NCBI GenBank assembly: GCA_051294905.1
Contig: CM119371.1
Location: 4,528,001-4,592,000, forward strand
Source: Botryllus schlosseri
Lineage: Eukaryota
Reading direction: 5' to 3'
DNA length: 64,000 nt
The stretch's first letter is position 1. Each line of letters begins with the position of its first letter. The notes under the pieces were generated by a model, which worked only from the letters and a program-made list of their open reading frames with translations, searched no databases and was not told the DNA's origin. Positions 1,801 through 24,572 of the stretch are shown piece after piece. The translations under genes were made by a program, and so were the position numbers.

Positions 1801-4724
1801 GTGAGAACACCTCGCAGAACCGTACATCCTGCCATGGGCAATTTCATCACTACCCTTTATCCATACGATTCCTAGACGCACCTACACACACACACATACA
1901 CCCTATGGAAGCATCCAGTTGCCAACTATAGCCTGTATAAGGCGATCTTTTCACGGACGAACCCAAATCGCTGACATTAAGTGATGAACAATCAGTGTTT
2001 ATTTCGGACCTATAGTCGCGCGGAGCGTAAAATGTTTTTGAATAAATAAAAGAGTTTTATCAATAATACTGATGCGTGTGCGTGCATATGAGCCCGATTC
2101 CAGTCTTATCAATTACTTTGTTGAAGCACGGTTGTTTAGCAACCTCTCGTAAAGATTGGCACCACTTTAAAGATTGGAATTGCTGATACATACCAGAACA
2201 AATTGCAGAACTCCTTTGATGAGACTCGTGCGATTTCAAATTAGTACTTTTTAACGGGAGGTGGCGATATTTTCCTGTGCCAGTCGCATTTATGTCCGGG
2301 GGGGGGGGGGGGGGGGGCAGGGGGTCTGATTGCAGGGACAGAATCATTAGGCGCCAGCCTTTTAAGCACCCAAAAAGCTATATCGAGGGCTTCGGAATAC
2401 ATGCGTCCGTTTTATAACCGTCAATCATTTTGGGAGCGCACTTTGCGGAGTCGCATGTAGCCTACTTTATATGTCTTTGTGTGTCCCGGTACGGAAGTTA
2501 CCAGAACTAACAGTCCCCAACCCCTATACTGAACTGACACCCATAGACCCAATCAACCCAACGACCTCGGGCTACTCTCGTGTATCTACTGGTACTGTTG
2601 TATTCTCATAATTGAGAATATAGGTATAGGTATTTGAGGAAGAATTTTTTTAGGGATACCGTTAATAAAATCAAGACATGCATGGCCACTAAATCGTGCG
2701 AAGCGCGAAGAAAATATTTAGGTTGCATTCATCTACCCTAAAATACTGTTATTTTTATTGATTTTACGAAAAAGTTTCAAAAATTTGGGGGGGGCGATCG
2801 CCCCTTTCGCCCCTCTCTGGCTACGCCAGTGGGGCTGGGTAGTGGCGCGTCAACTACCGGCTACGCGCCTGGGCACCAGGATTTTTATTAATTGATAAGG
2901 ATAATAAGTGATGGTTTTTTAGTCTTGAAATCATATGATCCTTGCCACTAAGGGGTAACTTACGAACAATAATTATAGTTTCCATGCTCTTTTTTTCTGT
3001 GGAAGGATTGAAAACACGAATTATTGTAAAAAATAAATGAAATGGCTATGTTCTAAAAACATCTAGTTATTTTTATTTCGATATAAAACTAGCATTATAC
3101 ACTTCGTGATCGCATAAACGGCACATGTCTGAACTTAACACATCTTTCTTATAGTTATGTCGTCACAATGAAGGATACTAGAAAACCCAACTTGACTTGA
3201 AAGCCTAATACGCGTTTCAGATCTACTGATTACAAATGGGGTAATTCATGCGGTCACTAAGTTACAAGGTCTAAAATTGGAATGAAACTTATTGAATGGC
3301 CCCGGGAATTTAAAAAGTGATATACATAGCATTTCATAAACTATTTTCATAAATAAGGTAAAATGCCATGCAAAATTCTTCCATCTCGTTGTGATTGCCA
3401 AAGTTCAAAATGAAATGATGTCTGAACCAATTTGGAAACTAGGATTCTCAGGCAGTGTCGCCTCTGTGTAGTGTGAACTGTGTGTACTAAAATCTTGAAG
3501 TTTAGTTCTGCTGTCAATTGTAGCCAGTGTCGGGATCCATGCACCACTTTTTCTATTCACAACAATATGACCATCACCAATAAGAATTTCCGGCGAACAT
3601 GTTAAAATTTATTGTTTTTGTAATGGGTTTAGGGCAGACTTGGACAACTAGAAAACTTTCAGCTTTTTTAAAGTTAGCTAGCTAGCTACACATTTTTCAA
3701 ATTTCCAAATTAGATTAGACTTAGACTTACTGATAGTGAATTCGTGAAAACTTTGTAGTTGAATCGATTTAATCTCATATCAAATCAGAGCTCATTCTCA
3801 TACTTATGAAAATATGTGTACAGCAAGCTTGCTCGATTCTACACGATAATGTTCTCTTGAAGCATTTTCAATAGAACCAGACGGCAGATAAGAAATAGAA
3901 CGAGAGCATACACACATTTCACAGATTTGATTAGAATCTGTATTTGAACCAGTGTTGGGATCAAGTCTCTTATGTTCGAGTCACGAGGCACCTTGAGTCA
4001 TTGCGAATATTGAGTCGAGTCAAGTCAGGTCAATCGATTTTCAAAGGTGTCTTGAGTCAATTCAAGTCACTCGTTTTTTGGAGGTTACTCGAGTCAAATC
4101 AACTCACGACTCATGTCATGATTCAAGTCAAATTGAATTTTTGAACTATGAGTGATGATGTAAAGTCATTACATTTTGCTGAGTGTGTGAAAAACAGATT
4201 AATTGACCAAAATGACCACTCATCTTAAATCAAATAGCATTGTATCGCTCACTATAAATAATACGAGTGTAACTGTATAGCCACATGCTATACAGTCTGT
4301 TATTATCAGCCAAAATAGAGGATCGAATACGAAGCCTCGAGATGTTGAAACAAATTGATGTGGTACAATACACTACTCATAAATTATATTCATTCAATTT
4401 AAATTATAATAGAAAGTTGGTAAAGGTGAACACTGCATAATGTAAGCACTTGAGCCGTCGAAAAATAAGAAATACGTTCAGTGGTTCTCGACCGTTTTGT
4501 CTTCGCGTATCGCCACCGACCCTCGTGGACCTCTCATGCATATGCATCTTTGGTGAATTGATACCAGAGCCTTTCCTGTCGGCAAAGCCGTTCAATTAAC
4601 TTGCAATGAATTTCAACTCGAAGCCTTCTAGGCGAAACGGTGGCATTTACAGATTTTAGAAGAAATCTACACAGATCAACGACAGGACTAAGCATGGTGA
4701 CTCTAATCTTGAGAACTGGAAGTA

Positions 4725-7230
4725 GCGTAATTTTCCATGTATAATCCGCAAAATTTACACGATTTTTTGCCCTAAAATCGGGGGGTGCGTATTATACATG
4801 GGAACAACACGCTAGAAAAAAATGTCCCTCGATAAAAAACTTGAAATCACACCTTTCTTCATTTTTGTTTCCAATCACGCATCACTTTCAGCCATCACGG
4901 GTAGTAATTCGTATTAAAGAGTGTGACGCGCTGCCAATTAAGGGAAGCGCGTCTCTAATTAACGAGAGCCGTGCGCACAATCACGCGATCTCCTGCTGAG
5001 TTGGGTTGCCGTTTGTACGGGAGCGGAATGAGGTCAGTAATAGACACTCGCGCGCGGCAATTCTCGCCAATTCATCGCGTCAATGACAGGCCCGAACAAT
5101 CGCATATACAAGAGGCCATGTGCGCAAGATATAATCGCTTGCGTAATCAGTCGCATCTCCAACAGAACTGTTGCACATGACATAACCGTTAGCCTAGGCG
5201 CAATCGCATCTGTAATAGGCATCATGCTCAAGATGTCGGTTCGTTGGCCTAAACCAGTGGTTCTTAACCTTGCCCACAGCGCCTCCCAGGGGGCGCTGGC
5301 GACTCTGAAAGGGGGCGGAAGCGCTCAGGGGGCGATATGGGGGGCGCTGGGCTCAGGGGGGCGGTATGGGGGGCGCTGGAGAAAAATGGCTTCGCAGTAG
5401 ATGATGTGGTGGTAGGCCATATCCTTAATGAGTATTCAGGGCAAATTAACACCGAAAACTTCGTTACGTATAGCGTTCAAAATACATATAGGTTTAATTG
5501 TCCATGGGCGCCTAAATGACTGACACCGAATGTTCCTGTCTTGGCAATCTGAACCCCAGAAGACGAATTCCATCCGGCAGGGAACAATTATATGTCAGTG
5601 AGGAAATACCAATCTGAAATTGGTGCGTCTTTTAGTTTAGTACGATTGGGCGACAGGGATATTCCTGTTGGGCGATATCCCCGTTGCGCGATTCTATATT
5701 TTTTGATATTGCAGACAGGGGGTCACGAAATAGCATCATGCAACGAAGTCATACCAACGGGCTCGCCCGCCCAAATATGTTTGACCATTAGTAAGGGGCC
5801 CTACAGTTTTCAAGAAACCTCACAATGTTCGCTTTAAGTTTTGATGAGTCTGCGCACACTCAACAACTCACTGCGCTGACCCTTGGACAACAGTGCGTAA
5901 CGACTAAAAAAGGTAATAACTTCGGATTTGTTGTGCGCAACGTAGATTTCCTGTGCGCAGAGACCGTGTCAGCACTGCGCACGTGCGCAGCTTAGAGGCA
6001 ACAATGCACCTCACTCAGCTCTACCGGTAAATGTGTTTACATGAGCAGAGAGAGGATAAAAATTGATCTCAATTTGCATGCAATTCCCGATGATATTGAC
6101 CAATTTAATCAATAATTAGTGAGATTTTTCGCGCTTCGCACGACTAGGCGAGCATAGCTGCCTCAGTAAATGGACACCCAATGTAGACACCTAATAGGCT
6201 ATCAGCCAATAGCGGACAGCCTAATGGAGGTATGGGAGTGAAGTCCCCAGGAAGTTTGGTTTATCACCCGATGGGGGCCCTGGACCAACGTTTTTTGTTT
6301 TGAGGGGGGGGCTGAAGAAGTGCTGTTACGGCCCTGGTAACGAATAATTGTACCTGCGGGAACGCCCGAATATGTTTAATTATTAATTACGTGCCCTTTA
6401 TTTTCCTATACAACAGCTCATTCGGTGCTACTGGTAAATCTGATTACGTGGGCTGAGAGGATAAACAGTTTATAGCGAGTTATATATGTAATTACCACCT
6501 TTCCATTCATGCATTATAGAAAATTATGGTACCTAGGGCGACCAGGCCACACAAACTTTGCTGACCAGTGACCATCAAAATCACGATATGGGGTTCGTGG
6601 GGGCGAAGATCTCAGAGATTCAGTTTATCACGCTATGGGTGCGCAAGGCAATCGTTTTTAGGGGGGTTGACAAAGTGCTATTACGGCCCTCCCTCTTACT
6701 CATTGTCTTTATTACATTCTTTACAATATGAAGTTGGGGGGCGCTGGAGCACGATAATTTTTGAAAGGGGGCGCTGGAAGAAAAAAGCTTAATAACCACT
6801 GGCCTAAACTAACTCGTCGTCGGCCTCGCAGGCTTTGGCTGCCATCTACTGTCGTTTAGAGACAATACCGTTAATTGTATAATGATTAGCAATATGATTA
6901 GCAATCGCATATGTGAAAGGTCTCCTCGTGCTCAAGATGTCGTGTCGCTAGCCTGAACTATCGTGCCGCCCGCCTCGCAGGCTTTGGCTGCTATCTACTA
7001 TCGATTAAAGACAATCCCGCTAATTGTATAATGATTAGCGATCGTCGTGTAATGATTGTTCAACAGTGACATTGCAAAACAGAATGACATCGTATACGAA
7101 ATCGGAACTATTCGTGTTCTGAAATGCAGGGTGCGTACTATACATGGGTACAGGCTTTTTCCCAGAATTTACATGCTATTTTAGGGGTGCGTATTATACA
7201 TCCGGGCGTACTATACTTGGAAAATTACGG
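4725..7230. mobile_element. Tc1/mariner-superfamily (Tc2-like) non-autonomous element
   Basis: TIRs gcgtaattttccatgtata / tatacttggaaaattacgg flanked by TA on both sides; same family as 21534-21981. Confidence 0.75.
5255..6801. mobile_element. hAT (Buster-type) MITE nested in the Tc2-like element
   Basis: TIR cagtggtt / aaccactg; exact TSD GCCTAAAC; subterminal gggggcgct repeats. Confidence 0.85.
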
Positions 7231-8083
7231 TAGTTCGCGTGTAGAAAAATGCTCATAAGTAGAGTTGTATATAAATAATATCCTGAAATATGAATATCAT
7301 GTGACATCAGCGACTATTATTGTTATTGTAATTAATCATGTTTCATAAAACTCCGTCGTGTACAGCTGCTTGTCTGCATCTTAATCATTTCGGACATGCC
7401 CGTGAAAAGTAAAGCGGTTGTTAACGTTGAAGAACCACTGGTCTTCAAAAGATTGTCAAACACATTCCTCTGTCGGCTAGTGCTATTGGAGCTGGTGTTT
7501 AACGCGACCAAGACCATGGTGCCGGCTCCGAACCAGATATCCGTCTCTAATCGCCTGGCCGAACCGGGCTGATGGTGTCACACTTGTTCCAGAATTGTTG
7601 TGAATCTAATATTCAATCATCCCGGGACTTGTTGTAGACAGTAAATGAACAGTTTTGTGTCTTGGAGCTAAAATCTATTGGACGATCAAGTTGAAACCTG
7701 AATGTCCCAAATGTTCTATCCGCAGCCAATATCCGAGAGGGAATCTGTAATGTAATTGTGATCCACAAAGTATGTGCGAAACATCTATGAGTAACTACCG
7801 TACTCGTCTGAATTGTCAGGCTGCCGGTCACCACAATGCCTAATAATTCTACTAAACTGGTATTATTAGATCATAAGTTTGTTATTCTTGGATATTGTTA
7901 TTTATCACACTGCTCCGTTTTAGCTAATTCTTTCTGTATTTTAGACTGGGTTGCTATAATTTGAGAATTAGAATACTATGCAATGACTCATTCCAAGCTA
8001 TCGTTGAAAACTCGTTTTCAAGCAGTGAGCGGTTGATGTGTGATTCTTCAAGAAGTAAAGTAATATACAGATAATCCAGAAGA

Positions 8084-9601
8084 ATGGCAAGGAAGATGTG
8101 CTGGATCTGTGGAAAGAGCTTCCACCGTAACGACGGATTGAAGGCCCACTTGCGATTCCACATTATAGATAGAAATACCGAATGTGACATCTGCGGAAAA
8201 TCGTTTGTGCAGGCTAGCGACCTGAAAACGCATGGAAATATACATACTGGAAGCAAAAACTATGCATGTCAGATCTGTGGAAAAATGTTTATCCAGCTTG
8301 GTCACTTGAAACGCCATGAACATACACATACTGGAGTAAAAAACTATGGATGTCTGATCTGTGGAAAAGCTTTTACCCAGCTTGTTGACTTAAAAAGACA
8401 TGAACATACACATACCGGAGTAAAAGACTATGAGTGTCAGATCTGCGGAAAAGCTTTTAATCGGCTTAGTAACTTGGAAACACATGTGAATACACATAAT
8501 GAAGTCAAAAACTATGAGTGCCAGATCTGTGGAAAAGAGTTTATTCAGCTCGGTCACTTGAAAACACATGAAAATACACATGCTGGAGTAAAAAACTATG
8601 GATGTCTGATCTGCGGGAAAGCTTTTACCAAGCTTGTTGACTTAAAAAGACATGAACATACACATACCGGAGTCAAAAACTATGAGTGTCAGATCTGCGG
8701 AAAAGCGTTTACCCAGCTTAGTAACTTGAAACAACATGAAAATACACATAATGGAGTCAAAAACTATGAGTGTCAGATCTGTGGAAAAGCGTTTATTCGG
8801 CTTAGTCACTTGATAACACATGTGAATACACATACTGGAGTCAAAAACTATGAGTGTCAGATCTGCGGAAAAGCTTTTACCCAGCTTGTTGACTTAAAAA
8901 GACATGAACATACACATACGGGAGTCAAAAATTATGCATGTCAGATCTGCGGAAAAGCGTTTGCCCGGCTTGATAACTTGAAAACACATGAGAATGCACA
9001 TACTGGAGTCAAAAACTATGCATGTCAAATCTGCGGAAAAGCGTTTACCCATCTTGGTAGCTTGAAACAACATGAAAATACACATACTGGAGTCAGAAAG
9101 TATGCATGTCAGATCTGCGGAAAAGCGTTAACCCGGCTTCGTGACTTGAAAAGACATGAAAATACACATACCAGAGTCAAGAACTACGAGTGTCAGATCT
9201 GCGGAAAAGTGTTTACCCAGCTTAGTAGCTTGAATAATCATGGACATATACATATGGGAGTCAAAAACTATGCATGTCAGATCTGCGGAAAAGCGTTTAC
9301 CCATCTTGGTAACTTAAAACAACATGAAAATACACATACTGGAGTCAGAAAGTATGCATGTCAGATCTGCGGAAAAGCGTTTACCCAGCTTAATAGCTTG
9401 AATAATCATGGACATATACATATGGGAGTCAAAAACTATGCATGTCAGATCTGCGGAAAAGCGTTTACCCATCTTGGTAACTTAAAACAACATGAAAATA
9501 CACATACTGGAGTCAGAAAGTATGCATGTCAGACGTGCGGAAAAGCGTTTACCCGGCTCGATTACTTGAAAAGACATGAAAGTACACATACAGTAGAATA
9601 G
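8084..9601 (+). CDS. Tandem C2H2 zinc-finger protein, 18 fingers (intronless ORF, possibly a 3' exon)
   Basis: 505-aa uninterrupted ORF of 28-aa repeats CxxC-GKAF-x5-L-xx-HxxxH with TGVKNY linkers; all 18 fingers keep their Cys and His ligands. Confidence 0.9.
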   Translation: MARKMCWICGKSFHRNDGLKAHLRFHIIDRNTECDICGKSFVQASDLKTHGNIHTGSKNYACQICGKMFIQLGHLKRHEHTHTGVKNYGCLICGKAFTQLVDLKRHEHTHTGVKDYECQICGKAFNRLSNLETHVNTHNEVKNYECQICGKEFIQLGHLKTHENTHAGVKNYGCLICGKAFTKLVDLKRHEHTHTGVKNYECQICGKAFTQLSNLKQHENTHNGVKNYECQICGKAFIRLSHLITHVNTHTGVKNYECQICGKAFTQLVDLKRHEHTHTGVKNYACQICGKAFARLDNLKTHENAHTGVKNYACQICGKAFTHLGSLKQHENTHTGVRKYACQICGKALTRLRDLKRHENTHTRVKNYECQICGKVFTQLSSLNNHGHIHMGVKNYACQICGKAFTHLGNLKQHENTHTGVRKYACQICGKAFTQLNSLNNHGHIHMGVKNYACQICGKAFTHLGNLKQHENTHTGVRKYACQTCGKAFTRLDYLKRHESTHTVE

Positions 9602-9762
9602 CGGAACGCACGTCTTTTTCTTCTCGCTATGATGGTCTCGAACATGAAGCAGTTATATTGACAGAAATACCTTATACTAAAATATGCTGTTATTTAGAGT
9701 GGACGTCCATTCAATCTGCTAGAATTTAATATTGCGTTCAAATCTGTACCAGTACTCAACAC

Positions 9763-12700
9763 CATAGGCGCCGACTTACGAGGTTACGAGGTGGCGCAGC
9801 TACCTCGTGACCATATTTACGAGGTGGCGGCCACCTCGTATAAAATGCTCAAACGCCCAAGTTATTTGTGACCAGTAATTAGTAATCCGGCGTATCGATG
9901 CGACCTCGTTAGAGACGTATTCGATTTCGATACGCGTGTCTGCCAGGCGCGTAGCTACGGGGGTTTCGGGCGTCGAACTTCCCTATTTGAAACGCGAAAC
10001 CTCGTCATTTTGAAATGATCATTCTAACTCAAATATGCAGTTGCCATTCCATAATTCTGTTACCAGTGTTTCGCGCGGATGATTTGCGAGAAACGTGTTG
10101 TCAATTAACGAGAAGAGTCTGTGATGATCTCCCGCTGAGATGGTCGCGAAATTAGGTCATTCATTCCCGTGCGCGCGGCAATCGTCGCTAGCCTAATTTA
10201 TCGCGTCTCGAACAAGCCTGGTTCCGCAGGCTTGAACAATCGCATCTGCAATACGTCCAGTTCACAGGATATCATCGCTTGCCTGCGCAATTGCATCTGC
10301 ATAGGCGGCTTCGGCCTAGTGTGCACGATATCGTTGCTGGCGTACACAATAGCATCTGCAATAGGCCCGGTGTGAAAGATATTGTCGTTAGCCTAACTAT
10401 CGCGTCTCGGATTAGCATGCTTTGACTCCTATCTCTCGCTGGTTTGGAGACACTGCGGTCGAGTTTACGCTAATTAGTGATTGTTTTATGTCATATTGAT
10501 TAATAAGCGACATCGCGAAACTGAATAACATCGAATCGCTGCAAACAGACATTAACGTTCGTAATTGATTCCCGCTCATACTTGAACTTAACGATCAGAA
10601 TATGTGTATCATGGCTAGGGCTGGGCACAATGATTCGAGTACTCGAATCTGAATCGAGTATTAATTTTAATGATTCGAGTCGAGTAGTAAAAGAAGATAT
10701 TTTCGAGTACTGAAATTACAAGCTCCTCGCTACTGAATGTTAATTTATCAACGAGAATTATAGTTTTGATGCTAGTTTCCAATTTGGAAGGCTTAAAACA
10801 CTAATTGGCTGCATTGTAGCATACGAAACATAGTACAAAGCTACAAAGCTTACGTGAAATAACACATTTTCGAAGTCATAATCATCCCACAACCTTGTCA
10901 CGAAGTGCAATGAAATCGGTATATGGTCGAAAAAATATCAAGGCATCTTTAATGTGGTGGATAACAGGCATTATATTCTTTGCTGTGGCAATGTGGCATA
11001 CAAGCTACATATTTGAACTTTGACATATTACATTCTGTTATGACGTCATAGTGTGTGATACTCGAATACTCGACTCGACTCGACGCATAATACGTGATTC
11101 AGAATCGAATCACTCAGGTACTCGATTTTGCCCAGCCCTAATCATGGCTCGAGTTCTGAAAGACGACGAAGGTTTGAAATCGATGCCATCAATTTCGGAC
11201 ATTTTGATTTGCGAAAACTGTCGCCGAGACTGCGTAGTTTAATTTTTCACCAGAGATCAGGGACTCGCTAATTGACAGCACTCCCGGACACTTTGGCAAG
11301 CTTATCATACCCCTAAAATCGTCAATACGAAGAGATTATATGATCGCCATTTACACATGTACTTGACCCGAATTGAATCAATGCTATATTGGTAAATTTG
11401 AAAATAAAATCCAAATGCCCCTAATTTTTCGACTGGCGACGCGTATAGCGTGTGCTGAGAAGCACCATCAATCCATCATAGATCTCCTCTCCCTACCAGG
11501 CGCCCAAATGGACGTTCTGCTTTTCTGAAATCTAAATTATGTGCGCCCATATTCGTTTACAAAACCATTCGTGAGCTAGCTAGCTTCGTGATAGTCTTGG
11601 TAATCGGAGCGCGTAATTGGCAGGCGTGTTGGTGTGTGCCTGAAAATTGAAATTCAATTCATTTCTGCGCAGATTCGTTTCTCTAACAAGGCTTTGCCAG
11701 TGATATTAATCGGGAAATGCAGCAATACACCGTAAACATCGATATAATGAGAAAACAATAGTCGCGACGAAAGCTACTCAATACGGTGTCAGACTTAAAA
11801 CCCATTCGCGGCGACACTGGTTAGAATACACGCTTTCTTATTTGCCATCATCCATATTTCTTGTTATCTACTTGATACATTCGTACTCCGAAATTGTCGC
11901 ACAAAGTGTTCCTTTCATTAGTAACGTGCAGTAGGCCATGTCATGCCATTGTCCAATATTGATGCATCACAAGATTCTATGTGGCATAAATTCTGATTTT
12001 ATTCGATTCGTTTGAACAGGGAGCCTTCTACATTCCGATAAACTTGATTTCTAGATGTACTCGTATCGAGAACAACAATATCGAATATTAAACTATTAGA
12101 AATTAGATAGACATTGGATTTCTAGTGACAGGATCTCGGCATGCGCCCGAAGTGGCCAACCTGCGGCCGTAGAAGGACATTTGTGCGGCCGTCAACACGT
12201 AATTCAATTAGTATGTGTTGGCGGCCGTCGACATGCAGATTGAATTTACGAATTGACCGATGTACTCCCGAAATGCTTCGCGAACGTAAACCGGGAAATG
12301 CACCAAAATCGCCCAAATCGCAGTTTTAATCAGCAAACAATTGCCGCGATGCGAGTCAACACGAGCAAGAAACCGCAAGAGACAATTAGCCTACTGATTG
12401 GCTGCGCGATTTCGCGTTTGTAATCATTATTATTCTCTGCTTGAAGTATTCGAGAGTTGTCGTGTGTTACTTGTAGTGCCTGGCGTAGCGAATTTCGTTA
12501 CTCACAGGCATGTGAATAACATTGATACAACTGCAGATTCCGTCGGACGGACTGGTAGCGCTGGCACTTCAACACTTCTAGTGATCATACCGTTTTAAGA
12601 TTCCATTTAATATCTCGACTGCATGGTTTGATATTAATGAGTGCAAGGCCAGTATTAAAATGTCACGCGAATGGTATAACGCTGCACGCACACCACCGGC

Positions 12701-12806
12701 ATGTAGTAAAGTACGTTTTCGGGCGATGATGACGTCATCGATATGGAACAATTATGACGTCACAAGACTTCGCCACCTCGTAAAAAAATAAAAGTCGGCG
12801 CCTATG
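9763..12806. mobile_element. Non-autonomous hAT-like element (about 3.0 kb)
   Basis: TIR cataggcgccgactt / aagtcggcgcctatg; exact TSD CTCAACAC; subterminal acgaggtggcg repeats. Confidence 0.9.
10616..11140 (+). mobile_element. hAT-type MITE (525 bp); relatives recur in the PLK introns
   Basis: TIR tagggctgggca / tgcccagcccta; exact TSD ATCATGGC. Confidence 0.9.
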
Positions 12807-14090
12807 CTCAACACATATATCTTTGAATCACCTTTCCGGCTGAATGATTTCTGTGCCGGATGTGTAGAAATGGTGTTGGTGGTGGACTTGTATCTTCATG
12901 TTGCAACGCCACTGGCCCATGTCCATATATCGCTGCCACAATCAAATTTCTGTGTACGTTCTTTGTCTTTCTTGCCTATTTTTTTTCAGTTTTAGAATGT
13001 CCCTCCCAGTTTCATATCTTAATTACTGTGCCTGAAAATTTGCTTCTCACTGCCTGAATCAGTCTCAATGAACACCTCTTTGTGATAATTTGCGCTGGGT
13101 CTATTGTTCAGAGAAGTTTGAAGGGGATGTTCAAATCTTTGTATCACAGTACTAATACTATAGTTTATGCCACCTTTAAGCGTCGTGTGAATTAGCCTTT
13201 GTCATATTCTCTGGTAATTAGCAGTCTGCGCATATCGTTAAGAAGCTCCTTGTAGTCTGATATGATGTTCTGTCAGCTTTTTGCTAGTAGTATCTCCTAA
13301 TTCCAGCAGTATGCTGCATCCTTACAAAGACAACGCGAAAGGGATGCTTTGTGGTACCGGTGATTAGCACATCATTGATCGCTATCCTTTGTGATTATGT
13401 GATTAATAACAGTCAGCCGCAGCACATAATATTTTTATTCTGTTTCGCTTTAAAATCTATTGAACATCTGATAAATTCTGTGTGTATTTCTGTTATACAC
13501 TCGCTGCATCTTGTCAACAATTTCGTTCCTACATGAGATTTTGTTTCGTTCAGATTATTTGTAATTTGTAACACTGCACAACAATGCTCCTTAACTTGTT
13601 TTGTTTGATGAAAACTTGAAGCTGATATGACGAACTCATGAACCCTGTTCACTAAAGAGGCAAACTGAGGTAAATCGTGATATGAATAATCAGTAATAAT
13701 CAGATTTTTTTCAACATCTCAAAATTGTTCACAAAGTCGAAAAAATTTTGACATATGCATTTCGTTCGTATCATAGATTTTGCACTGTTGGTGAACTTTT
13801 CATTTGATATTTTACAACTTAGCCTATAGCCTACTTTATATGCCTACCATTGTAAACGGTCAATTATTTGCTCATTGTGAATTAATAACGGTCAAATAAA
13901 AGAAATAAGTAGACACGGTGTTATGGTCAACGTGCCGCAATATCCTAACTGAAGAAACACTTCTTGGGCATTGCATCATTCTTATATTAAGGAGTGCATC
14001 ATTCTTACATTAATGAACGCATGATGAAAAATTGTGATGTAGACTACATTTTCAGAATGAAGCAACACGGTGTGTCACCAACAGTTTATG

Positions 14091-14165
14091 CAGCCAACTG
14101 CTGCTGTTGAACGTTCTTTCTCCATTCTTAGCAAGCGTCTTAGTAAGGACATGCACTCTCTACCC
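14091..14165 (+). mobile_element. Relic of a hAT transposase C-terminal dimerisation domain
   Basis: Translates QPTAAVERSFSILSKRLSKDMHSL, matching the hAT ERxFS motif; element boundaries uncertain (about 13.65-14.57 kb). Confidence 0.5.
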
Positions 14166-16741
14166 AAGAATGTAGGAAAGTATCTCTCGTTTCACTATAG
14201 TTGTATGCTACAAATTTTAATTATTTTTACCATAATACGTATTGTAAGCACTGGATTTTTTCATAGGGCCAGACTTCGTTAAAATATCAGTTTTTTCATG
14301 TAAAAATTTGCCTGTTTACAAGCGAAAAACGTTTTGTTCAGGCGAAACTACTGCATTAGGACAGCCAGTTCCAACTAAAAATGAAAATAAGTGATACAGT
14401 CTTAAAATTACATGGAAATACACCTAATTTGCATACGTTAGGTCAAAATTTGGTCACAATTCAGTTTTGTTAGGTCGAAAAAAGTCGAAATTTCTATTTT
14501 TAGATCAATATTTTCTTTTTTTTTTTGGTCAACATTTTCTTTTTTTAGGTCAATGAAAAATCTCCCTAATAATTAGGTATGTCAATTGAACTATCCTGAG
14601 CTACAGACATTACAGACACTGCTGGCGAGAGCTCGATTATAGCTGCAGGCTGTACGGAAAATCACTTTTGGTAGGTGGTTTCACTTCTGGCCGAGTAGAC
14701 CAGATATTTATGGTTTGATTAGTGACGGTTACTTCTCCAAGAACTCAGAAGCTGTAGAGCAAAACCAGTGTCACTTCTTAGCCAACATGATTGGATAAGG
14801 AATGATATTACCCGTAAAACTTGTGATGAATAATTGCACTGGCAACATAGCACTAATCTTTTGTGGCAATCCGGCACTATGGAGGCGCGTAATGGCTCAA
14901 AATCGTCATTAACTGTTCATTTGATTTTATGCAAATTGCGAGCTACATAGAATGCCCTTTTGGAAGAAGTGTGCAGGGCACTATGAAATATTGCGCCATA
15001 GTAGTGTTGCAATGGTTTTTCGCTGTCTGTATATTGCGTCACCTTAACCATTTGGTTCTCAACTGCCAATTTCCAGACCTGTGCCAGTCGGCTGAACAAA
15101 TATATATTTGATGTATTCGTAATCGCAAAATGTAAGAGGTGGGAATCTTGTTCATTAATTACAGAACTAGAACACCGCCTTCTTTTTTTTAATCATCATC
15201 ACAGCGTTGCAATTCATGCACCGATCTGTTTGAAATCACCCAGAAACACGTTTATTAGGAAAAAACATCACTCAATATTCAGACATGCTTGGAACGCGAT
15301 GTTTGATTACGGCTTAGTGTCGGAATTAGCTCCGTACATACTATTACTTGAAAAAATGGCTGAAATGTTGATTTCAGATTGCAATGCTGTTGCTAGTCGA
15401 AATCGACCGAAATTTGGTTTCTAACGTTGTTAGGCAACCTGACAATTTCATCACTATGCGAGTAAAGTTTTAATATATGTTATTTCCGGAACGGCCTTAC
15501 TGTAAAAGTCGTCACAAGGGGATTATTCAACCACCAATCAATGTCTCATTGTTATTGGAGCGAATAAAATCCAGTAGATGAGATTTTGAGTCCGTCGGTA
15601 GTTTTGTCAACTTTTAAAGATCATACAGACAGCTCATTATTTTTAGAAACAACGTGTTTCCGAACTTCATCCTTTACATCTGAAAATAGCCCTTCTATGC
15701 CTTGCGAAATTGTGTTTTTACTGGTAAGTTGAGCAACGTTGTAACTTAATCAATCAATCCTTTTTCCACCAGCTTGTCCTTGTCACCAGCTAGTGTGACC
15801 TGCGATACCAACCGCTCATTTCAAAATTTTGATGCGTGCTTTTACTCAGCCTATATCGTTTTTTTCTTAAATTAGCTTAACATAAACGATGTGATTCGAC
15901 CGTAAGTAGTCACAGAATACGGTAGTAGACTGACCACATGCCCCAATTTTTGGTTCAAATTTACCTCAAATATCGTGCAACCGTAATCTACCATGACACA
16001 AATATCGACTGTAAGCTAGTAATAAAGATCATCAAAAATAACATCATACTATTGATGTGCAGATTGGGAGGACTTTATGTTGTGAATCCTGTAGCTGCAT
16101 TTCTTGGAACGTGCTAGAAAATCCACACCGTCGATTTGACATGAACTAATGCCAAAAATCAATTTCCACTATGATAGCTGGTGGCGGATGTAATAATTGA
16201 CTGTAGCGCTTCACAAGATAATTTTTTGGTATGATATATATGGCAGCAATATTGAGAAACAGAACACACAAGGTCCAGCCTATTCATTTTTATCTAGCAG
16301 CTCATCTTGAAGTTGATATGGAATAGCGGTTATTTATGTCACAGATGAAAAGGGATTTTTGCAAATAGATTAATTTGAAAACCCTTACAACACATCTCTA
16401 AACAGCAATATCTTTGTATCAGTGAGTAGACGAATGGTTTCTAAAATGCGTTTCTCTAGTAGAATATTCCATCCAAGACCGTCATTATGTTTATGTCAGT
16501 CCTGAAGTTTGAACAGTTATGAAGCGAAACTACCTCGTGATTTCTCTAATTGAGAAATACAAATTTGGTTTTCAACCATTTTGCAAATTTGGAGGATTTG
16601 CGGACCCCCTGAAAATGCTTGCTGGACCCTCGATTCATAATCTCTGTATTTGATTAATCTATACTGCTACTACGACAACGTAAGCTGTGATCATTTCATT
16701 TGTGGTCAATAGGTCGATGTATTTGTGATGTAGCAATAGAG

Positions 16742-17172
16742 CAGTGGTTCCCAAAATTCCAGGAGGTACACGAGTGGATTCTGTTTTATTTTCGTTCGAA
16801 GGGAGTTAGTAGTACAGGTGTGCTTGATTTTGAGTTTTTTGAAGATTCGTGGTAAGGTCTTTTTCTTGGGTGGTCAATCCCAGCAATGACGGCTTATTGG
16901 GAAGAGAACTACTCGTCAAGCATTGGGATTCTTACCTAACCAAATTACGTTTTAGTATATTCGACCACACGAATTCCGAATCGATCCACTACAGAAATCA
17001 CATATTGCGCCTTAGTATGGGCAGTTTATTTTCTGTTTTGCTGCAATCGGCAGCTCAACACGGTGAAAACATTTTTGACGGTCTTTGCCGCACGTAACTT
17101 ATGTAGGTGGTACGCGAGCACTGCATAAAATCTCAAAATGGTACGTGGGTAGAAAAAAGTTGGGGACCACTG
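16742..17172. mobile_element. hAT (Buster-type) MITE
   Basis: TIR cagtggttcccaaa / ttggggaccactg; exact TSD CAATAGAG. Confidence 0.85.
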
Positions 17173-17326
17173 CAATAGAGGATCGGTGAAACCTACAATC
17201 GGTGAATGACTGGTCGTTCTCACAAGTGGCACCAGCGTATCGCGACCGAGCCGAACTTACCCATGGTACATCGTTTATTTGATAACTTGAAATTGACTCG
17301 TAAATTTTACCTGAGTCACGAGTCAA

Positions 17327-17630
17327 ACCGACAAGATAGCGTAATGGTGAAGCATCCTGGTTTTTGATCGGTAGGTCGTGGGTTCGATCCCTGGCCGGGT
17401 CAGACCATAGACCAGATTAGTATCACTTCTATCCATGACTTCCCTGCTTGGCGCTCATGCATTGCTGGGATAGCATGGATGGGGTGATGCAAAACTAGAA
17501 TGCCGGAAAAGGCTATATCTGCACCTTCCTTGTCCAGCGGCATATGCACATTGTCTACATGTATATCACGAGTTGGTGTATATGCCACAAAAACATCAAA
17601 GACAAACATGAACTATATCCATTCCTTTCC
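17327..17630 (+). mobile_element. tRNA-derived SINE
   Basis: Pol III A box tagcgtaatgg (17337-17347) and B box ggttcgatccc (17381-17391); about 300 bp that interrupts the host MITE; ccattcctttcc-like tail. Confidence 0.7.
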
Positions 17631-18247
17631 AATCCACATTTCTGAAGCGCCGAGTCAAGTCAAGTCATACGAAAAAGTTGACTAGAGTCTGACTCGAGTC
17701 AAGTCATGACTCGAGTCGTCCAAACGCTGATTAGAGCGCAGAAATATTTCGGAAATTAGATTGGAATTATAGTACCGGTTGGTTGCTCTAATTAGTGTAA
17801 TTAGATAACTATAATTATCTAGTTGTCCATGTGCAGTTAAGGGATAGGATATCGTAGGACTGGGTTTAGTTTTGTACTTGTGGTGGCGTAAAATTAAGGT
17901 CGGGTTAAAGGTCATGGATGCTTTCACAAAACACTAAACCTAAACCACTCATGAATGCCATAAATGTTGACGTAGTCACTTCGAACCGTGATTAATGATG
18001 GTCATGTGTCATGCATTTGTTATTGGCGTGTTTCAAACTGTGTTCAATTTAAAGTGATACGTAATTTTCAGAGATGAATTGTCATAAACCTGAATTTTTA
18101 TTTTATGTCTATGGTTGGCTATGAATTGGTTGCAATTCACCGTTAAATATTCAGTTGTAAATTAATTATGCACTGAGTTCACTGACTATCATGATTGCTG
18201 ATCGTCCAGTAATGTGTATCAAGACTAGCTTATAACATACCATAGGC

Positions 18248-19526
18248 CAGGGGTCACTAACCTTTTTGCAACCAAAGGCTACTTTTGGGTACTGATTGAA
18301 GCGACGGGCTACCATTTACTCCCACCGTTTACCCTTGTCAGACGGAATTTCCGATTTGATATTCATAGCATTGGGCACGTATCGCATAGCGTTAAGACTT
18401 CTAAGAGATTCTTTTAACTCGAAACATCTTATTTCAACTTGCTAGCCACAAAGACTTTTTAAGAAATCACGAACTACTTCACACCGTGTCTATATAAGTT
18501 ATTATATAACAACTGTAAGCTTAGATTTTAAAATAAATCACGTCATACGTTAGACTGCACAGTGGACATCGTGTTATCTGTTTCTAAACCAGTCAGTGAG
18601 AGGCCTGGCATTGAATGCTATCAACTAGTGCGCTGTACTCTGGTATGCAACTTACACTGCAACTCTGATTGAGTGTTGCAGATGTGCAATGTGCATTAGT
18701 GAGGCGTGTTCTGTGATTGTTTTTTGATCAATGTCGTGTCCGCAAAGGCTAATACACAACGATAAGTTGAACCAAACACGCTTGCAACCTTCCTCGCTGC
18801 TGCGCAAGTGCGCATTCACCGCTGTACTTTTCCGTGCCAATAAGGCCTGTGAGGTGGAGGTGATTTTGCAGTGGTTGAATTTCAATCCCGGACTGTTCAG
18901 CATCCAGACATGACAGATTTCATTATACCTGACAGCAACATCGATTGCAGAAAGTTAGAAACATGGTACTATAAACTGCGTTGAGTGTAAGAGAGGCAAC
19001 CTGTGTCAAAAGATGCAATACGTAATGGGCATACTGCATCTGCTCTTACGTCACCGCTATCTGCTACTAGCTACTGGATAGTAATGTTGCTTACTACTTT
19101 GGCATTGTCCGGGACGTCGGGCTACCATATCTGAGCCCCCCACCATTTCAAGAAGACCGTGGATGGCATGCCGTCATATCGCATGTATGGACAGTAGCCT
19201 ACGCCGTATTCTACGTCTTCGATATCTTGTTATTCTATTTCATGTTGGACGTTGGTATATTACTAATTTTAATTTGGGATATTTTATATCATCATTATAA
19301 GTGTCTATATATATGTATTGTCATTTCTAAGTCACATGTTATAGTTTGATTTAAACAAGAATATAGCTAGATCACTCAATTTATATATTTAAAAGCTCAC
19401 TGGTGATAATCTGACGAATATTGGCAAATGCTGCTATTCGATCTATTTTTAGAGCAGGCTCGCGGGCCACTCATCTGGTCCTCGCGGGCTACGTGGTGCC
19501 CGCGGGCACCAGGTTGGTGACCACTG
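18248..19526. mobile_element. hAT (Buster-type) non-autonomous element
   Basis: TIR caggggtcactaacct / aggttggtgaccactg; TSD ccataggc / ccacaggc (7 of 8). Confidence 0.8.
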
Positions 19527-20158
19527 CCACAGGCGTTGTGGTGCTTCTGACAGGAAAGACTAGCTACAAACTAGCAGGAATATTTCTCTTTTCAACCTAT
19601 ATAAAAGTAAATGTAGCACTGTTAATGTGAACTTTATTACTGAGGAAACTAATTCAAGGCATATTCATTGAAGCTGCTCAATGTTCATGGTCACAGGTAC
19701 ATCTTTTGATGGTTATTGGAGAATTTCTGTAATTCATTTGTAAATATGCACCAAAGTGCGCTATTGTCAGTCAGCTTTGTGTTTTTTTCTGATGTATGAA
19801 TGGTTTGTTACTAAAATGATCGAAACTTGATATAACAATAGTTCTCTTGATGATATCCGACTACATTAAACAATATGAATACATCACTATGTAATATATT
19901 TATTTTTACACTCTCATTAATGATGTCATTTCCATGCCATTGATATTTTTGTATGTTGTACTCTATCCTGGTATGGTGATTGCTCTGTGTACAGTCTTAC
20001 AATAATCTTTGTTTGATATAGTTCTACACTTTCATGCATTACAGATGTGGTCATACTATTATTGAACTAAGTTTATTTGCTTAAATGCTGAAAATCTTAC
20101 GGTCTTTTCTCTATTGTCATAAAGAAAAGCATTCAGTGGATCCAGTATCATCTACGAT

Positions 20159-22060
20159 TTGGAAGAACGCCGATTCCATATATATGGGAAAGCATTTACT
20201 GGGAATAGTAACCTCAAACATCATATGGACATGCATGCTGGCATCAAAAATTTTGAATTTGATGTATGTGGTAAAGCATTCACTCATGAGGGTAACCTCA
20301 AGCGTCATATGGATATGCATGCTGGTATCAAAAATCATGTTTGTGATATATATGGGAAAGAATACACTAGGAAGGGTCACCTCAAGCATCATATGGATAA
20401 GCATGCTGGAATCAAAAATCATACATGTGCTATATGTGGTAAAGCATTCACTGAGAATTGCACCCTCAAGGTTCATATGGATATGCATGCTGGCATCAAA
20501 AATCATGTTTGTGATATATGTGGGAAAGAATACACTAGGAAGGGTCACCTCAAGCATCATATGGATATGCATGCTGGCATCAAAAATCATGTTTGTGATA
20601 TATGTGGGAAAGAATTCACTAGGAAGGGTCACCTCAAGCTTCATATGGATAAGCATGCTGGAATCAAAAATCATACATGTGCTATATGTGGTAAAGCATT
20701 CACTGAGATTTGCACCCTCAAGGTTCATATGGATATGCATGCTGGCATCAAAAATCATGTTTGTGATATATGTGGGAAAGCATTCACAATGAGGTGTAAC
20801 CTCAAGCATCATATGGATAAGCATGCTGGGATCAAAAATCATACATGTGCTATATGTGGTAAAGCATTCACTCAAAAGGGTCACCTCAAGCGTCATATGG
20901 ATATGCATGCTGGCGTAAAAACTCATGTTTGTGATATATGTGGGAAAGAATTCACTAGGAAGGGTCACCTTAAGCTTCATATGGATCAGCATGCTGGAAT
21001 CAAAAATCATGCATGTGCTATATGTGGTAAAGCATTCACTCAGAATGGTACCCTCAAGCATCATATGGATAAGCATGCTGGAATCAAAAATCATGCATGT
21101 GCTATATGTGGTAAAGCATTCACTGAAAAGGGTACCCTCAATTTGCATATGGATAAACACACTGGAATCAAAAATCATACATGTGCTATATGTGGTAACG
21201 CATTCACTCAGAATGGTACCCTCAAGCTTCATATGGATATGCATGCTGGCATCAAAAATCATATATGTGCTATATGTGGTAAAGCATTCACTCAGAAGGG
21301 TACCCTCAAGCATCACATGGCTATGCATGCTGGCATCAAAAATCATGTTTGAGGATTGTCATGTATGTGCGAAAGCATATACTGTGAGGGGTCGCCTCAA
21401 GGAACATATGGATATGCATGCTGACATCAAAAAGTATAAATTAGACATGTGTTGAAAAGCATTTATTATGAAGGGCAACCTCAAGCATCATAGGGCTACA
21501 CATGCTGGCACCAAAATTCAAAACTGTGATATACCGTAATTTCCCATGTATAATACGCCCCTGCGTGGCTTGCGACGCGATAGTTCATACCAGCAACGAT
21601 ATCATGCACACAATCCCTATCACAGATGCGATTGAACAGGCCAACGATCAGACCTATATCGTGCGCACAAGGCCTGTTGGGGTTGCGTCTATTTCGGCCA
21701 GCAATTATATCTTGCTCTCTGGTCCTGTGGGAGATGCGATTGATCAGGCCTGTCGTTGACGCTATGAAGTACTACGATCTTCAGCGCTCGTGTGCAGCAC
21801 CGCTTCTCGTTAATTGGCAGCGCGCAACACTTCCGATACGAGTTACTGGGCACGGTGGCTGAATGTGATGCGGGATTGACAGCAAACATGTAGAAAGGTG
21901 TGATTTCAAGTTTTATTTCGGGAAAGATTTTTTCAAAACTTCTACCAATGCGTAATGTGCATTATACATGGAAGATTACGGTATGTGGAAAAGCATTTAC
22001 TACGAAGATTAACTGCAAGCGTCATACAGTTCTGCATGCTGATAATCAAAAATCATGAAC
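20159..22060 (+). pseudogene. Tandem C2H2 zinc-finger array, partly decayed (open frame 20159-21352: 14 units, 11 intact)
   Basis: 84-bp repeats with AGIKNH linkers; the ORF starts at TTG; the first three fingers lack Cys ligands; TGA at 21350 is followed by frameshifted fingers, a TE insertion and another finger remnant. Confidence 0.75.
21534..21981. mobile_element. Tc2-like MITE inserted in a zinc-finger repeat
   Basis: TIR ccgtaatttcccatgtataat / attatacatggaagattacgg; TA TSD; removal restores tgtgatata-tgtggaaaagcattt (C-D-I-C-G-K-A-F). Confidence 0.85.
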
Positions 22061-22891
22061 GTGAAACTTTCTGAAATGGCCAACATCAACTATGATATGG
22101 ATTAACATGTTTTGTTCAAAAGTCACGCAAGGTCTCGATCAAGTGAAAAAAGGTCGGAAGTATTCGAAATGACATCCAGTACCAGTATTCTTTCAATGAA
22201 AAACTCAATTTTACCTAGAACCTGATCAATCACCAATTTGCTCATGTAAGAAGGCATACTTGGTAACTTATCGAAATTCAAAGAGTTGCAAATTCATATA
22301 GATGCCGAATTACGTATATTTCACGTCTGGAGCTGGTTATGATCGAGTAACTGCTAGCAGTGCCAGTGATAAGTGATTGCCCTGAAGAGTAAACGTACTA
22401 CTACATCTCTATTGGCTTTCATACTGTATGAGCTCACATATTTTACATGTACATTTTATGATACTCATGCAGCCTATTGCATTAACACTGGTCAATATGA
22501 AAGAGACCCATATCGTTATGCATTTTTGTGTATTGATGTACATTTGTTAACAAGCGTTATACATTTCTTGAATATCGTTAAGATCGGTTTTGTTTGTGTG
22601 ATGATCTTGCAGCCATTGCTAGCTAGTAATTGCTTAGTTTATCCTGTATAGTGGTAGTTCTGTCAGTCTGGTTCTTCAGTAAGTTTTTACTGATGTAAAT
22701 GTGGAAAGACAATCTGATTCCGATAAAATATAATGAATGAGTAGCTTCGGAATCAAATCCATTGAGTTATGTTTTCGTTAGTCACTGATTTTCAAATGTC
22801 GTTCGATCTGATTTAGTTGTGCTGTTTAAGCATCCAGTAGTTTGTGGAAGTCTGGTGCCAGCATGTTAATGTACGATATTTCATTTTGCAG

Positions 22892-23095
22892 ATTGATTTT
22901 GATTTGATTTCACGATTATGTTTAAAAAAAGTATAGCCTACCTTGCGACGAAAGAGATCTCCGAACTGATGTGTGATGACTCTCTGGGAACTATACACGC
23001 AAGGTCCATTTCTTGACAAAAGCTGATTTGCCAAATGCTTTAAACTCACTGGAGTCAAAAGAAAACAAGCTTTCGCTTGATAAAATGTGGCAAAG
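22892..23095 (+). pseudogene. PLK1: PLK exon A copy 1 (Gly-rich loop), disabled
   Basis: KEISEL...YTQGPFLDKS*FAKCFKLT vs PLK1 KEIPEVL...YVRGRFLGKGGFAKCFEI; donor mutated to GG. Confidence 0.75.
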
Positions 23096-23624
23096 GGGAG
23101 ACGTCTTTATCGACACTTTGGAATCTGCGTGAATGTTTATATTTGTCACATGCTCTAATACCATTTTGTAAATACTCTTGTGAAAACAAATACGGTCAAG
23201 AACTTGGAGGTTGCCATTTCTACATGCCTTTTATAACTAGAGCTAACCGGATTTCGGGTTTTTGAGCCGATACCAATGAAACTGATACCAAGCACCTTTA
23301 CTGATAGCCTCAATATTCCCCAAGATTTGGCCACATTTTCAAAAAATCACAGCTTCACAGTCATTGTTATACCTGGACATAAAAAAAACTAGAAACGCTG
23401 TATATGGACACTTGGAAAATATAAGGAATCTATCAATATTTCCAGTGTAGCAGTCGCATTGTTTTCTATGAGCAAGTTGTGGCCACGCAGAAATTATCGA
23501 TATTTGTTGCCTCTCATGGCCGATGCCGGTATATCTTTCAATGCGTGACATCGATACGATGTTATTGGCAAACGTATCACGGGCCAGGCAGTAAATGCGA
23601 TCAATAATTTGGTCTTCATTTCAG

Positions 23625-23774
23625 GCACTTCTTGTGAATAAGCATCATAAAGACAAAATGTGTCAAGAGACCAGTCTCCATCGCGGTTTGAGTCACAAAC
23701 AAGTCGTTCGATTTTATGGATTTTTCAAAGACAGGATTTTTTTCTATATCGTTCTGGAGTTGTGCAAAAGAAGG
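23625..23774 (+). pseudogene. PLK1: PLK exon B copy 1 (open frame)
   Basis: [50 protein letters not shown]; cag / gtaaag; 150 nt. Confidence 0.9.
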
Positions 23775-24572
23775 GTAAAGGTATTTCTTTGATACAACTG
23801 TGATACCGTGGCAATTGTATCAGCTCTGTCACGCTCATCACCAACAGACTTTGCCAACCAGATAATTCTTGATGTCTTAATAGACTAATTATAGACGAAT
23901 GGCGATAATTAAATTCAACCCAATTTGTGAAATGTTCATTTGCCCGCAGTTTAATTCTAGTCTGCTGTCTGTGAAAATATTACTGGAGGATTGTACCGAG
24001 AAAAACGAGCAAAACTTGGTGTATGTACAGACATTTGCTATTCTTGTGCTTATAAGAATAAACTCAGATATGATATGCACTGTACTAGATTTTGCTGCAT
24101 CTTCTGCTGCATTTCAATTTAGTTACGAAAGAAACCATATCATTTTAATGCTAATCTACGTTGGAAAATATGACATTTTTTCAATTACACAGCTTTGATC
24201 ACTGGGTCTGGGCACAGTCATTCTAGTCGAGTAGCGAGACAAACATTTTTTTAGTACTGAAATGACACGATCCTTGCTACAAGAGGATAAAGGATTAACA
24301 ATAAACTGAACCGAACTGAACAGAGGTAATTTACTAACACATTATCAATGATCAGGCTGGCGTGACGACAAAATGAGTATATGACCAGATATATTGTTGA
24401 CGCCATTTTAATATTTGATCAATGAGGATTTTATAAAACCTCACCTAATTCCATGAAGTGAAAACCCGATAAGACCTTCGTGATTCGGTTATATACCGTG
24501 TGAAATATAGATAAGGGAAAATACATGCTACAATATTTTGTTCGTAATCTCTCATGGCTATAATATATACGC

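Follow-up and report, generated by a model that had tools for sequence, protein, structure and literature searches.

Transposable elements (TEs) nested in one another, and templated or duplicative insertions at repaired chromosome breaks, form a known class of genomic scar. Here we describe such a scar in the tunicate Botryllus schlosseri, in a window of 64,000 nucleotides (C1:4528001-4592000, where C1 is contig CM119371.1) of its 495.5-Mb assembly. In this window an intact, single-exon C2H2 zinc-finger (ZNF) gene lies inside a hAT transposon that itself lies inside a miniature inverted-repeat transposable element (MITE). As in that class, the order of events is readable from the split elements, and the junctions carry microhomology and filler; unlike in that class, the inserted piece holds a complete gene under selection and was from then on a unit by which the cluster grew.

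Three further systems come close. Vertebrate KRAB-ZNF clusters grow by local duplication, with structural residues conserved and positive selection at the DNA-contact residues between recent duplicates (excerpts of PMC4592553). Like these clusters, for example that on human chromosome 19, the family described here is gathered on a megabase scale, with dozens of paralogues within 2.4 Mb; its members have 15-29 fingers, and the ratio of nonsynonymous to synonymous substitutions (dN/dS) is 2.8 at contact codons versus 0.34 elsewhere. Unlike KRAB-ZNF genes, it has neither a KRAB nor another effector domain in its open reading frame (ORF), nor a conserved upstream coding exon. Pack-TYPE elements and hAT transduplications, described in maize, rice and, for histone H3, Pseudocercospora fijiensis, hold host coding DNA between the terminal inverted repeats (TIRs) of a non-autonomous DNA transposon with an 8-bp target-site duplication (TSD) (portions of PMC8903248 and PMC6710886), and so at first sight does our locus. 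However, theirs are multiple transposed copies at different sites, whereas here the same outer flank accompanies every copy, the element is split and not rebuilt, and free copies of its family lack the gene. Finally, the Buster-family hAT MITE Mar of Drosophila willistoni is short and non-coding, with CAG... termini and 8-bp nnnTAnnn TSDs (PMC3517528, in part). The inner element of our locus resembles it, although here the assignment is by TSD pattern alone.

A first-pass annotation of the window had left two routes for the gene, either as cargo of the hAT element or by later insertion into it. The history that we favour, at a probability of roughly 0.8, has three layers: the MITE, then the inner hAT, then a block of ZNF-array DNA brought in by break repair, with segmental duplication of the whole thereafter. 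On this account the transposons would have served as a passive landing ground and as passengers of duplication, not as gene carriers.

Two nested transposons around the gene

The outer layer is represented in the window by a whole hAT-type MITE of ~980 bp at 24573-25554 (plus strand), with termini CAGTGTTGG...CCAACACTG and the TSD ATATACGC on both sides (8/8), and by an inverted copy in two parts, 3950-4478 and 16647-17729 (minus strand). BLAST of the whole reference copy against the window aligned, always in inverted orientation, reference 24956-25554 with 4465-3950 (71%, E 7e-91), 24573-24651 with 17729-17651 (92%), 24705-24877 with 17329-17173 and 24870-24945 with 16741-16662. The two parts end and resume at reference ~24945-24956 and therefore meet at one position without overlap. 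This bears out the first-pass annotation, which had placed the meeting point at ~24950 and had named overlap of the halves as an outcome that would refute its proposal.

The left part has the terminus CAGTGTTGGGAT next to the flank ATTTGAAC, and the flanks of the split copy, ATTTGAAC/ATTAGAGC, form an 8-bp target duplication that matches at six of eight positions. With its TIRs, 8-bp TSD and lack of coding capacity, the outer element is a hAT-type MITE, and dispersed copies of it occur on contigs C3, C9 and C10. The right part starts with the target duplication of the inner element, TATTTGAT, and contains a 321-bp extra piece at ~17309-17629 (joint 17308>17630). RNA reads heap up at 17356-17800 (depth ~30-100 per strand) with only a partial fit, and ~44 bases there (17508-17551) match an abundant transcript from elsewhere.

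The interruption of the MITE begins at 4479 with CAGTGGTTCTCGACC, a short TIR starting CAG as is typical of hAT elements, and ends at 16646 in a decayed inverted terminus; hAT-type termini in inverted orientation had been reported at these points, and that description stands. The first-pass annotation had also taken the 12.2 kb between them for a hAT insertion. The hAT ends are real, but the interruption is not one element: a non-autonomous hAT of ~760 bp, apparently of Buster type and called hAT-N below, is broken by a block of 11.4 kb. The left ~53 bp of hAT-N (4479-4531, plus strand) align collinearly with the opening ~55 bp both of free copies and of copies that lack the block, and the right ~705 bp (15941-16646, plus strand) run to the decayed terminus.

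hAT-N belongs to a short, high-copy family. Its last 533 bp before 16646 gave 3739 first-look candidates genome-wide, and 40/40 of those scored matched (E <= 1e-69). Here and in the other genome searches only the best 40 first-look candidates were scored (85 for the protein search), so that a rare transposed copy could escape; our survey of copies draws on the best-scoring candidates from seven such targeted searches, and copies were compared within this one assembly. Four free copies on other contigs measure 646-759 bp, have the ends CAGTGGTTCTCAACC...GGTTGAGAACCACTG and are flanked by 8-bp TSDs that match at 8/8, 7/8, 7/8 and 6/8 positions (TACTATAG, CTCTATAC, CACTATAG/CCTTATAG and CAACAATA/CAATAATA). 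The TSD of hAT-N within the MITE, TATTAGAT/TATTTGAT, matches at 7/8; its right copy was read in the window and its left copy in paralogues, the window having lost 10 bp there. TA stands at TSD positions 4-5 in at least one copy of every pair (5/5 hAT-N pairs), the pattern of the Buster-family consensus nnnTAnnn (PMC3517528, in part). The right end is near-identical to GGTTGAGAACCACTG in the free copies.

No ORF is present in hAT-N, and Pfam returned nothing for 10 non-ZNF ORFs of the region, so the BED finger, RNase-H-like core and hATC dimerisation domain of a hAT transposase were not found among them; hAT-N is a non-autonomous hAT member at most. Its placement with Buster, by TSD pattern and not by an autonomous partner or transposase, is accordingly a putative one. 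A candidate transposase remnant with a hATC-like motif at 14061-14282 was rejected: Pfam gave nothing at E <= 1, and it lies inside a dispersed ~800-bp repeat. An inverted copy of the right part of hAT-N, with a well-kept terminus (CAGTGGTTCTCAACC), is also found at 676-1190, and past 1190 follows a CCGATA-rich simple repeat (~1230-1330).

The inserted block and the segments that lack it

On the same chromosome are four paralogous segments that share their flanks and the MITE with the window copy; the ZNF block is absent from them, and their inner hAT is unbroken. These are region C (C1:5.71 Mb) and loci L058 (4.30 Mb), L057 (4.93 Mb) and L041 (26.13 Mb). Region C matches window 4385-4479 and, within ~70 bp, 15932-16710, followed by 17173-18247 and the next ZNF gene. 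In L058 and L057, window 2870-4506/4534 is joined directly to 15941-16710, followed by 17173-17846 and, in L057, also by 18090-18194; L041 is arranged similarly. Across the break point, hAT-N in these segments is collinear with the free copies L005, L006 and L007; the window hAT-N was therefore split by an insertion. The order of the layers and their boundaries can be observed directly in these comparisons. The gene arrived after the MITE, as the first-pass annotation had deduced, and also after the hAT, and the second of its two routes, later insertion into the hAT, is the one that the unbroken hAT-N of same-flank paralogues supports.

The insertion that splits hAT-N consists of 4532-15928 and 12 nt of filler, with no hAT-N sequence lost or replaced. 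Comparison with 11 paralogue loci (L020-L030) and three 20-30-kb regions (A, B and C) reduces the block to an ancestral core of 4532-4719, 7230-9762 and 12807-15928. The core opens with a 5' spacer (4532-4719, plus strand) and continues with the region upstream of the ZNF gene (7230-8083, plus strand) and, beyond the ORF, a 3' flank (9602-9762, plus strand), both common to paralogues. It closes with a downstream part (12807-15928, plus strand) that is specific to the cluster apart from ~800 bp at 13719-14523, which belong to a dispersed repeat. Apart from TE insertions and repeats, the block matches contig C1 only among scored candidates.

The remainder consists of secondary insertions. At 4720-7229, an older ~950-bp repeat (4720-5248 and 6808-7229), whose two outer parts abut in region A, is interrupted by a young repeat of 1.56 kb (5249-6807). 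The whole insertion is missing in most paralogues, and 4719 abuts 7230 in L022, L024, L026 and L028. Contig C11 carries a copy of the 1.56-kb repeat at 99% identity, and dozens of dispersed copies reach 92-96%; the repeat looks like a recently active non-autonomous element. Further TE insertions at 9763-12806 are missing in paralogues, with 9760/9762 abutting 12807 in 7/11 of the loci L020-L030; within them, 9763-10400 is 89-90% identical to dispersed copies, and 10612-11140 is a common repeat.

Both ends of the block recur elsewhere. Spacer 4533-4719 was found in 15 places, all on C1, nine of them at 4.5-6.4 Mb (the window included) and six at 21.9-22.1 Mb. In the three of these six 22-Mb copies that were inspected (3/3), the DNA upstream resembles window 13196-13342, not hAT or MITE. 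In two 22-Mb copies of the 3' end, homology stops exactly at 15928 and unrelated DNA follows. Because both end sequences recur in the 22-Mb array beside other DNA, the block looks like a copy of a stretch from a ZNF array, and the 22-Mb array is probably of the donor type.

The junctions themselves were read to the base. On the left, the acceptor ...GGACCCCCTA and the donor type ...TACCCTCAT give ...GGACCCCTCATGC, with 4-5 bases in common. On the right, the 12-nt filler ACTGACCACATG (15929-15940) separates the block from the resumed hAT-N; it is present in the window and in regions A and B, and absent from the block-free segments and the 22-Mb copy. Neither TIRs nor a target duplication mark the block ends, and poly(A) is absent at 15928. 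Such junctions would fit a break that was repaired by end joining, with a duplicated segment taken in. In a DNA-like contig run (X2), only short pieces of the same locus were recovered, none spanning a junction by at least 31 letters.

A few bases inside the left junction stands a perfect 12-bp palindrome, ATGCATATGCAT (4536-4547), and two paralogues are rearranged independently within ~10 bp of that junction, region B by deletion of 4367-4528 and the neighbourhood of L022 by a 1.6-kb insertion; the junction at the palindrome may be a fragile spot.

Two other origins of the block were considered and rejected. A processed retrocopy would be at odds with the lack of poly(A) and of a duplication, and the block spans ~1 kb upstream and ~3 kb downstream of the ORF. 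Recombination between two copies should have left another hAT-N or MITE end just before 15929, but when 4300-4620 was aligned locally with 15600-15990 the score was 16, under the shuffle mean of 19.3. Over 3900-18300, Rfam (gathering threshold) and ARAGORN found no RNA family and no tRNA.

Spread of the composite and order of events

If transposition had distributed the gene, its copies should differ in their surroundings, since new flanks are expected of a Pack-hAT that has moved; no such copy was seen. All eight other spacer copies of the near cluster (4.5-6.4 Mb) keep the left half of the MITE outside the hAT terminus, abutting it or within 1.7 kb. Four are continuous over 4300-4719 and a fifth from 4431; of the other three, one is interrupted at the junction by 740 bp, one is deleted for 4367-4528, and one has a 1.6-kb insertion at 4533-4543 (that in L022, flanked by copies of 4533-4543). 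The ~740 bp, in L036/L042 (C1:5470301-5471466), sit precisely at the boundary of the hAT-N terminus with the MITE flank.

The 15928/15929 junction is crossed in six other places, all on C1 at 4.0-6.4 Mb. Region A is collinear with window 15414-23783 and region B with 3114-16836, across the TE junctions and for kilobases beyond, so the common flanks are a matter of observation. Every scored close paralogue of 7493-9760 (74-85% identity) maps to C1, either at 4.08-6.5 or at 21.9-22.13 Mb. Among scored candidates, no copy of the block or gene lies off C1, and among the best of them no composite of hAT-N and block stands at a new site with its own TSD and flanks.

Because the outer flanks are common to the copies and the copies are clustered, the composite, judging from these alignments, is spread by segmental duplication and not by transposition. 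The first-pass annotation had seen here a route by which DNA transposons spread ZNF genes, and had suggested a search for paralogues flanked by the same termini at new sites. None was seen among the scored candidates: the MITE flank is kept by all eight other near-cluster spacer copies, and the close paralogues sit in two clusters of one chromosome. As a separate observation, the ZNF paralogues L020 (C1:4084834-4090052) and L021 (C1:4194599-4199813), 110 kb apart, mirror each other: their flanking pieces correspond but run in opposite order, and their open frames of 515 codons are near-identical, which suggests a large inverted duplication.

Under the three-layer history, the ~980-bp MITE would have inserted first, as the oldest and outermost layer, and the ~760-bp hAT-N would then have entered it by ordinary cut-and-paste, leaving its 8-bp target duplication. 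A chromosome break in the by then dead hAT-N would have been mended by end joining with a ~5-6-kb copy from a tandem C2H2 zinc-finger array, comprising spacer, one whole single-exon gene and downstream spacer. The composite, flanks included, would next have been multiplied by local segmental duplication within the 2.4-Mb ZNF cluster, and younger TEs would at last have entered the window copy (4720-7229 and 9763-12806), swelling the block to 11.4 kb.

Several observations weigh against this history. Those block-free segments whose right junction is readable (region C, L057 and L058) share a 22-bp deletion just right of hAT-N; they are therefore one lineage and not independent witnesses. Microhomology amounts to no more than 4-5 bp, where the DNA has diverged by 15-25%, and the repair mechanism is thus our inference. 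In the 22-Mb array, a putative donor type, no single collinear piece corresponds to the block: the 4533-like spacer is preceded there by 13342-like DNA, and the 15274-15928-like piece lies in another spacer. Finally, in three bulk RNA runs, sampled at 1.1-1.9 thousand million letters each (~6-13% of a run), no read of at least 96% identity fell on 7612-9467, and reads from the locus fell only on repeats. The window copy of the gene may be silent, or may be expressed only in stages outside the sampled runs.

The shared 22-bp deletion also lends something to the alternative that the block is ancestral and that one precise deletion, later duplicated, made the ZNF-less segments, since a single loss would then be enough. 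We consider this very unlikely. The hAT-N of those segments is collinear with unrelated free copies across the break, with nothing missing or added, and the deletion would have had to remove 5-6 kb and the 12-nt filler to the base; moreover, the block ends run on into other DNA in the 22-Mb array.

Slimmer still is the chance that 4532-15928 represents a mobile element in its own right, as yet unrecognised and Helitron-like or of another kind, which carried a ZNF gene and selected this site. Its sharp ends do recur in a second cluster, and region B and L022 were rearranged independently within a few bases of the left end. However, the palindrome beside these recurrent breaks can explain such fragility, and the block shows neither TIRs, TSD nor poly(A). 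Helitrons have 5'-TC and 3'-CTRR ends and an A/T target, and none of these is found here. The spacer occurs in only 15 places, in two clusters of one contig, and the 22-Mb copies share flanks with each other, as tandem duplicates do.

The slimmest chance of all goes to Pack-hAT cargo, the other route of the first-pass annotation, in which the gene was captured in the hAT (for example by gap repair after excision), moved by hAT transposase and its family spread in this way. A host gene bracketed by hAT termini, in a family that makes 8-bp TSDs, gives it a superficial fit, and both hAT capture with amplification of whole genes, as with histone H3 in P. fijiensis, and plant Pack-hAT elements are on record (PMC6710886 and PMC8903248, each in part), but the retained MITE flank (8/8 copies), the TE junctions and kilobases beyond that A and B share, the confinement of scored copies to one contig, a right terminus decayed in the window, A and B, and a high-copy hAT-N (40/40 scored candidates matching) that is only split, not internally replaced, and whose free copies lack the gene all argue against it. 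That right terminus reads GGTTGAGAACCACTG in L058 and L057 and is slightly decayed in region C.

The zinc-finger family

The ZNF ORF (8084-9601, plus strand) encodes 505 amino acids in a single exon, with 18 C2H2 fingers, TGVKNY linkers and no other domain; the first-pass annotation had described it as intact with 18 fingers, and so it proved. Pfam zf-C2H2 matches in 18 stretches (E 5e-106), which comprise 17 full 28-residue units and a last finger, and the array follows C-x2-C-x12-H-x3-H with a 28-residue period. The frame opens three codons before the methionine. In 10/11 paralogue loci it is open from a conserved methionine (M-T/A-R/K-K-M-C...), with the 15-29 fingers already mentioned. In KRAB-ZNF proteins the linker is TGEKPY, unlike the TGVKNY seen here. 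No KRAB-, SCAN-, BTB-, ZAD- or FiNZ-type effector domain was found in the ORF by Pfam (best 25 of 43 families, all zinc-binding or chance).

We compared every finger of the window gene with its best match in each paralogue, with contact codons masked in choosing the match. Over 170 finger pairs from 10 paralogues, dN/dS was 2.79 at positions -1, 2, 3 and 6 versus 0.34 at the other 24 codons, figures that are indicative only, as best-match pairing inside repeats can bias dN/dS; in the first 31 codons it was 0.21 (versus 5 paralogues). Under simulated neutral drift by substitution only, to 10%, the frame stays open in 1/2000 runs. The selection pattern is plain in these comparisons, and they indicate that the family is kept open by selection while diversifying at its DNA-contact residues; the protein presumably binds DNA.

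Upstream of the ORF, conservation across 7550-8083 is 0.72-0.87 in 40-bp bins, with one bin (7950-7989) at 0.56; this stretch is mostly as conserved as the coding part and is likely to be promoter and 5' untranslated region. A candidate upstream coding exon at 7397-7573 was discarded, given the stops and indels there in paralogues.

The poly-zinc-finger family to which the gene belongs is large and clustered, and the gene itself sits in a 2.4-Mb cluster. A protein search of the assembly returned 1073 first-look candidates, the majority of them on C1, and long open frames were frequent among them; most scored matches fall into clusters on C1 at ~4-6.5, 9.6-10.2, 21.9-22.15, 32.4-32.7, 34.7-34.8 and 36.9-37.2 Mb, and a further cluster is on C3 at 36.7-37.1 Mb. 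Public proteins gave generic poly-zinc-finger matches only, at 27-50% identity (7999 candidates scored), and no orthologue was identified among the matches listed (120 of 2042 passing). A second zinc-finger array, of another subfamily with HMDMHAGIKNH linkers, lies at 20085-21455. It is open for 409 codons (20123-21352), has more fingers in a different frame (20919-21455) and may be frameshifted; in regions A and C its paralogues, too, lie beside the TE composite.

Across metazoans, ZNF content and TE content have been linked in published work (PMC10547256, in part). The main text of that work (Wells et al. 2023) leaves tunicates unmentioned, and its supplements may list tunicate genomes. Our literature search on tunicate or ascidian ZNF expansions found no paper on the subject. 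By likeness to KRAB-ZNF proteins, TE repression is a candidate role for the family.

Transposons that ferry whole zinc-finger genes would be a new route for spreading supposed TE-policing genes, and the evidence points the other way. A block pasted into a dead transposon and multiplied by local duplication is a known mode of growth of tandem ZNF clusters, and the locus is an ordinary kind of event, a nested TE scar in a lineage-specific tandem ZNF cluster, resolved in unusual detail. Its value lies in a nest of three layers whose two junctions are resolved base by base and whose 'before' and 'after' states survive as paralogues within one genome, and in an apparently lineage-specific, large poly-zinc-finger family with clear contact-residue selection, in an animal group in which such families are hardly described.

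We also entertain, as a possible but on balance doubtful extension, that the junction is the founding scar of a new ZNF cluster at 4-6 Mb, seeded by one end-joining insertion from the 22-Mb array and since expanded to dozens of genes, and that the family, with its contact-residue diversification and lack of a KRAB domain, is a tunicate counterpart of the vertebrate ZNFs that repress TEs. If so, the split hAT and MITE halves would be a built-in marker of descent, and TE scars would allow one to date, copy by copy, when a ZNF cluster was seeded, how fast it grew and how its targets turned over.

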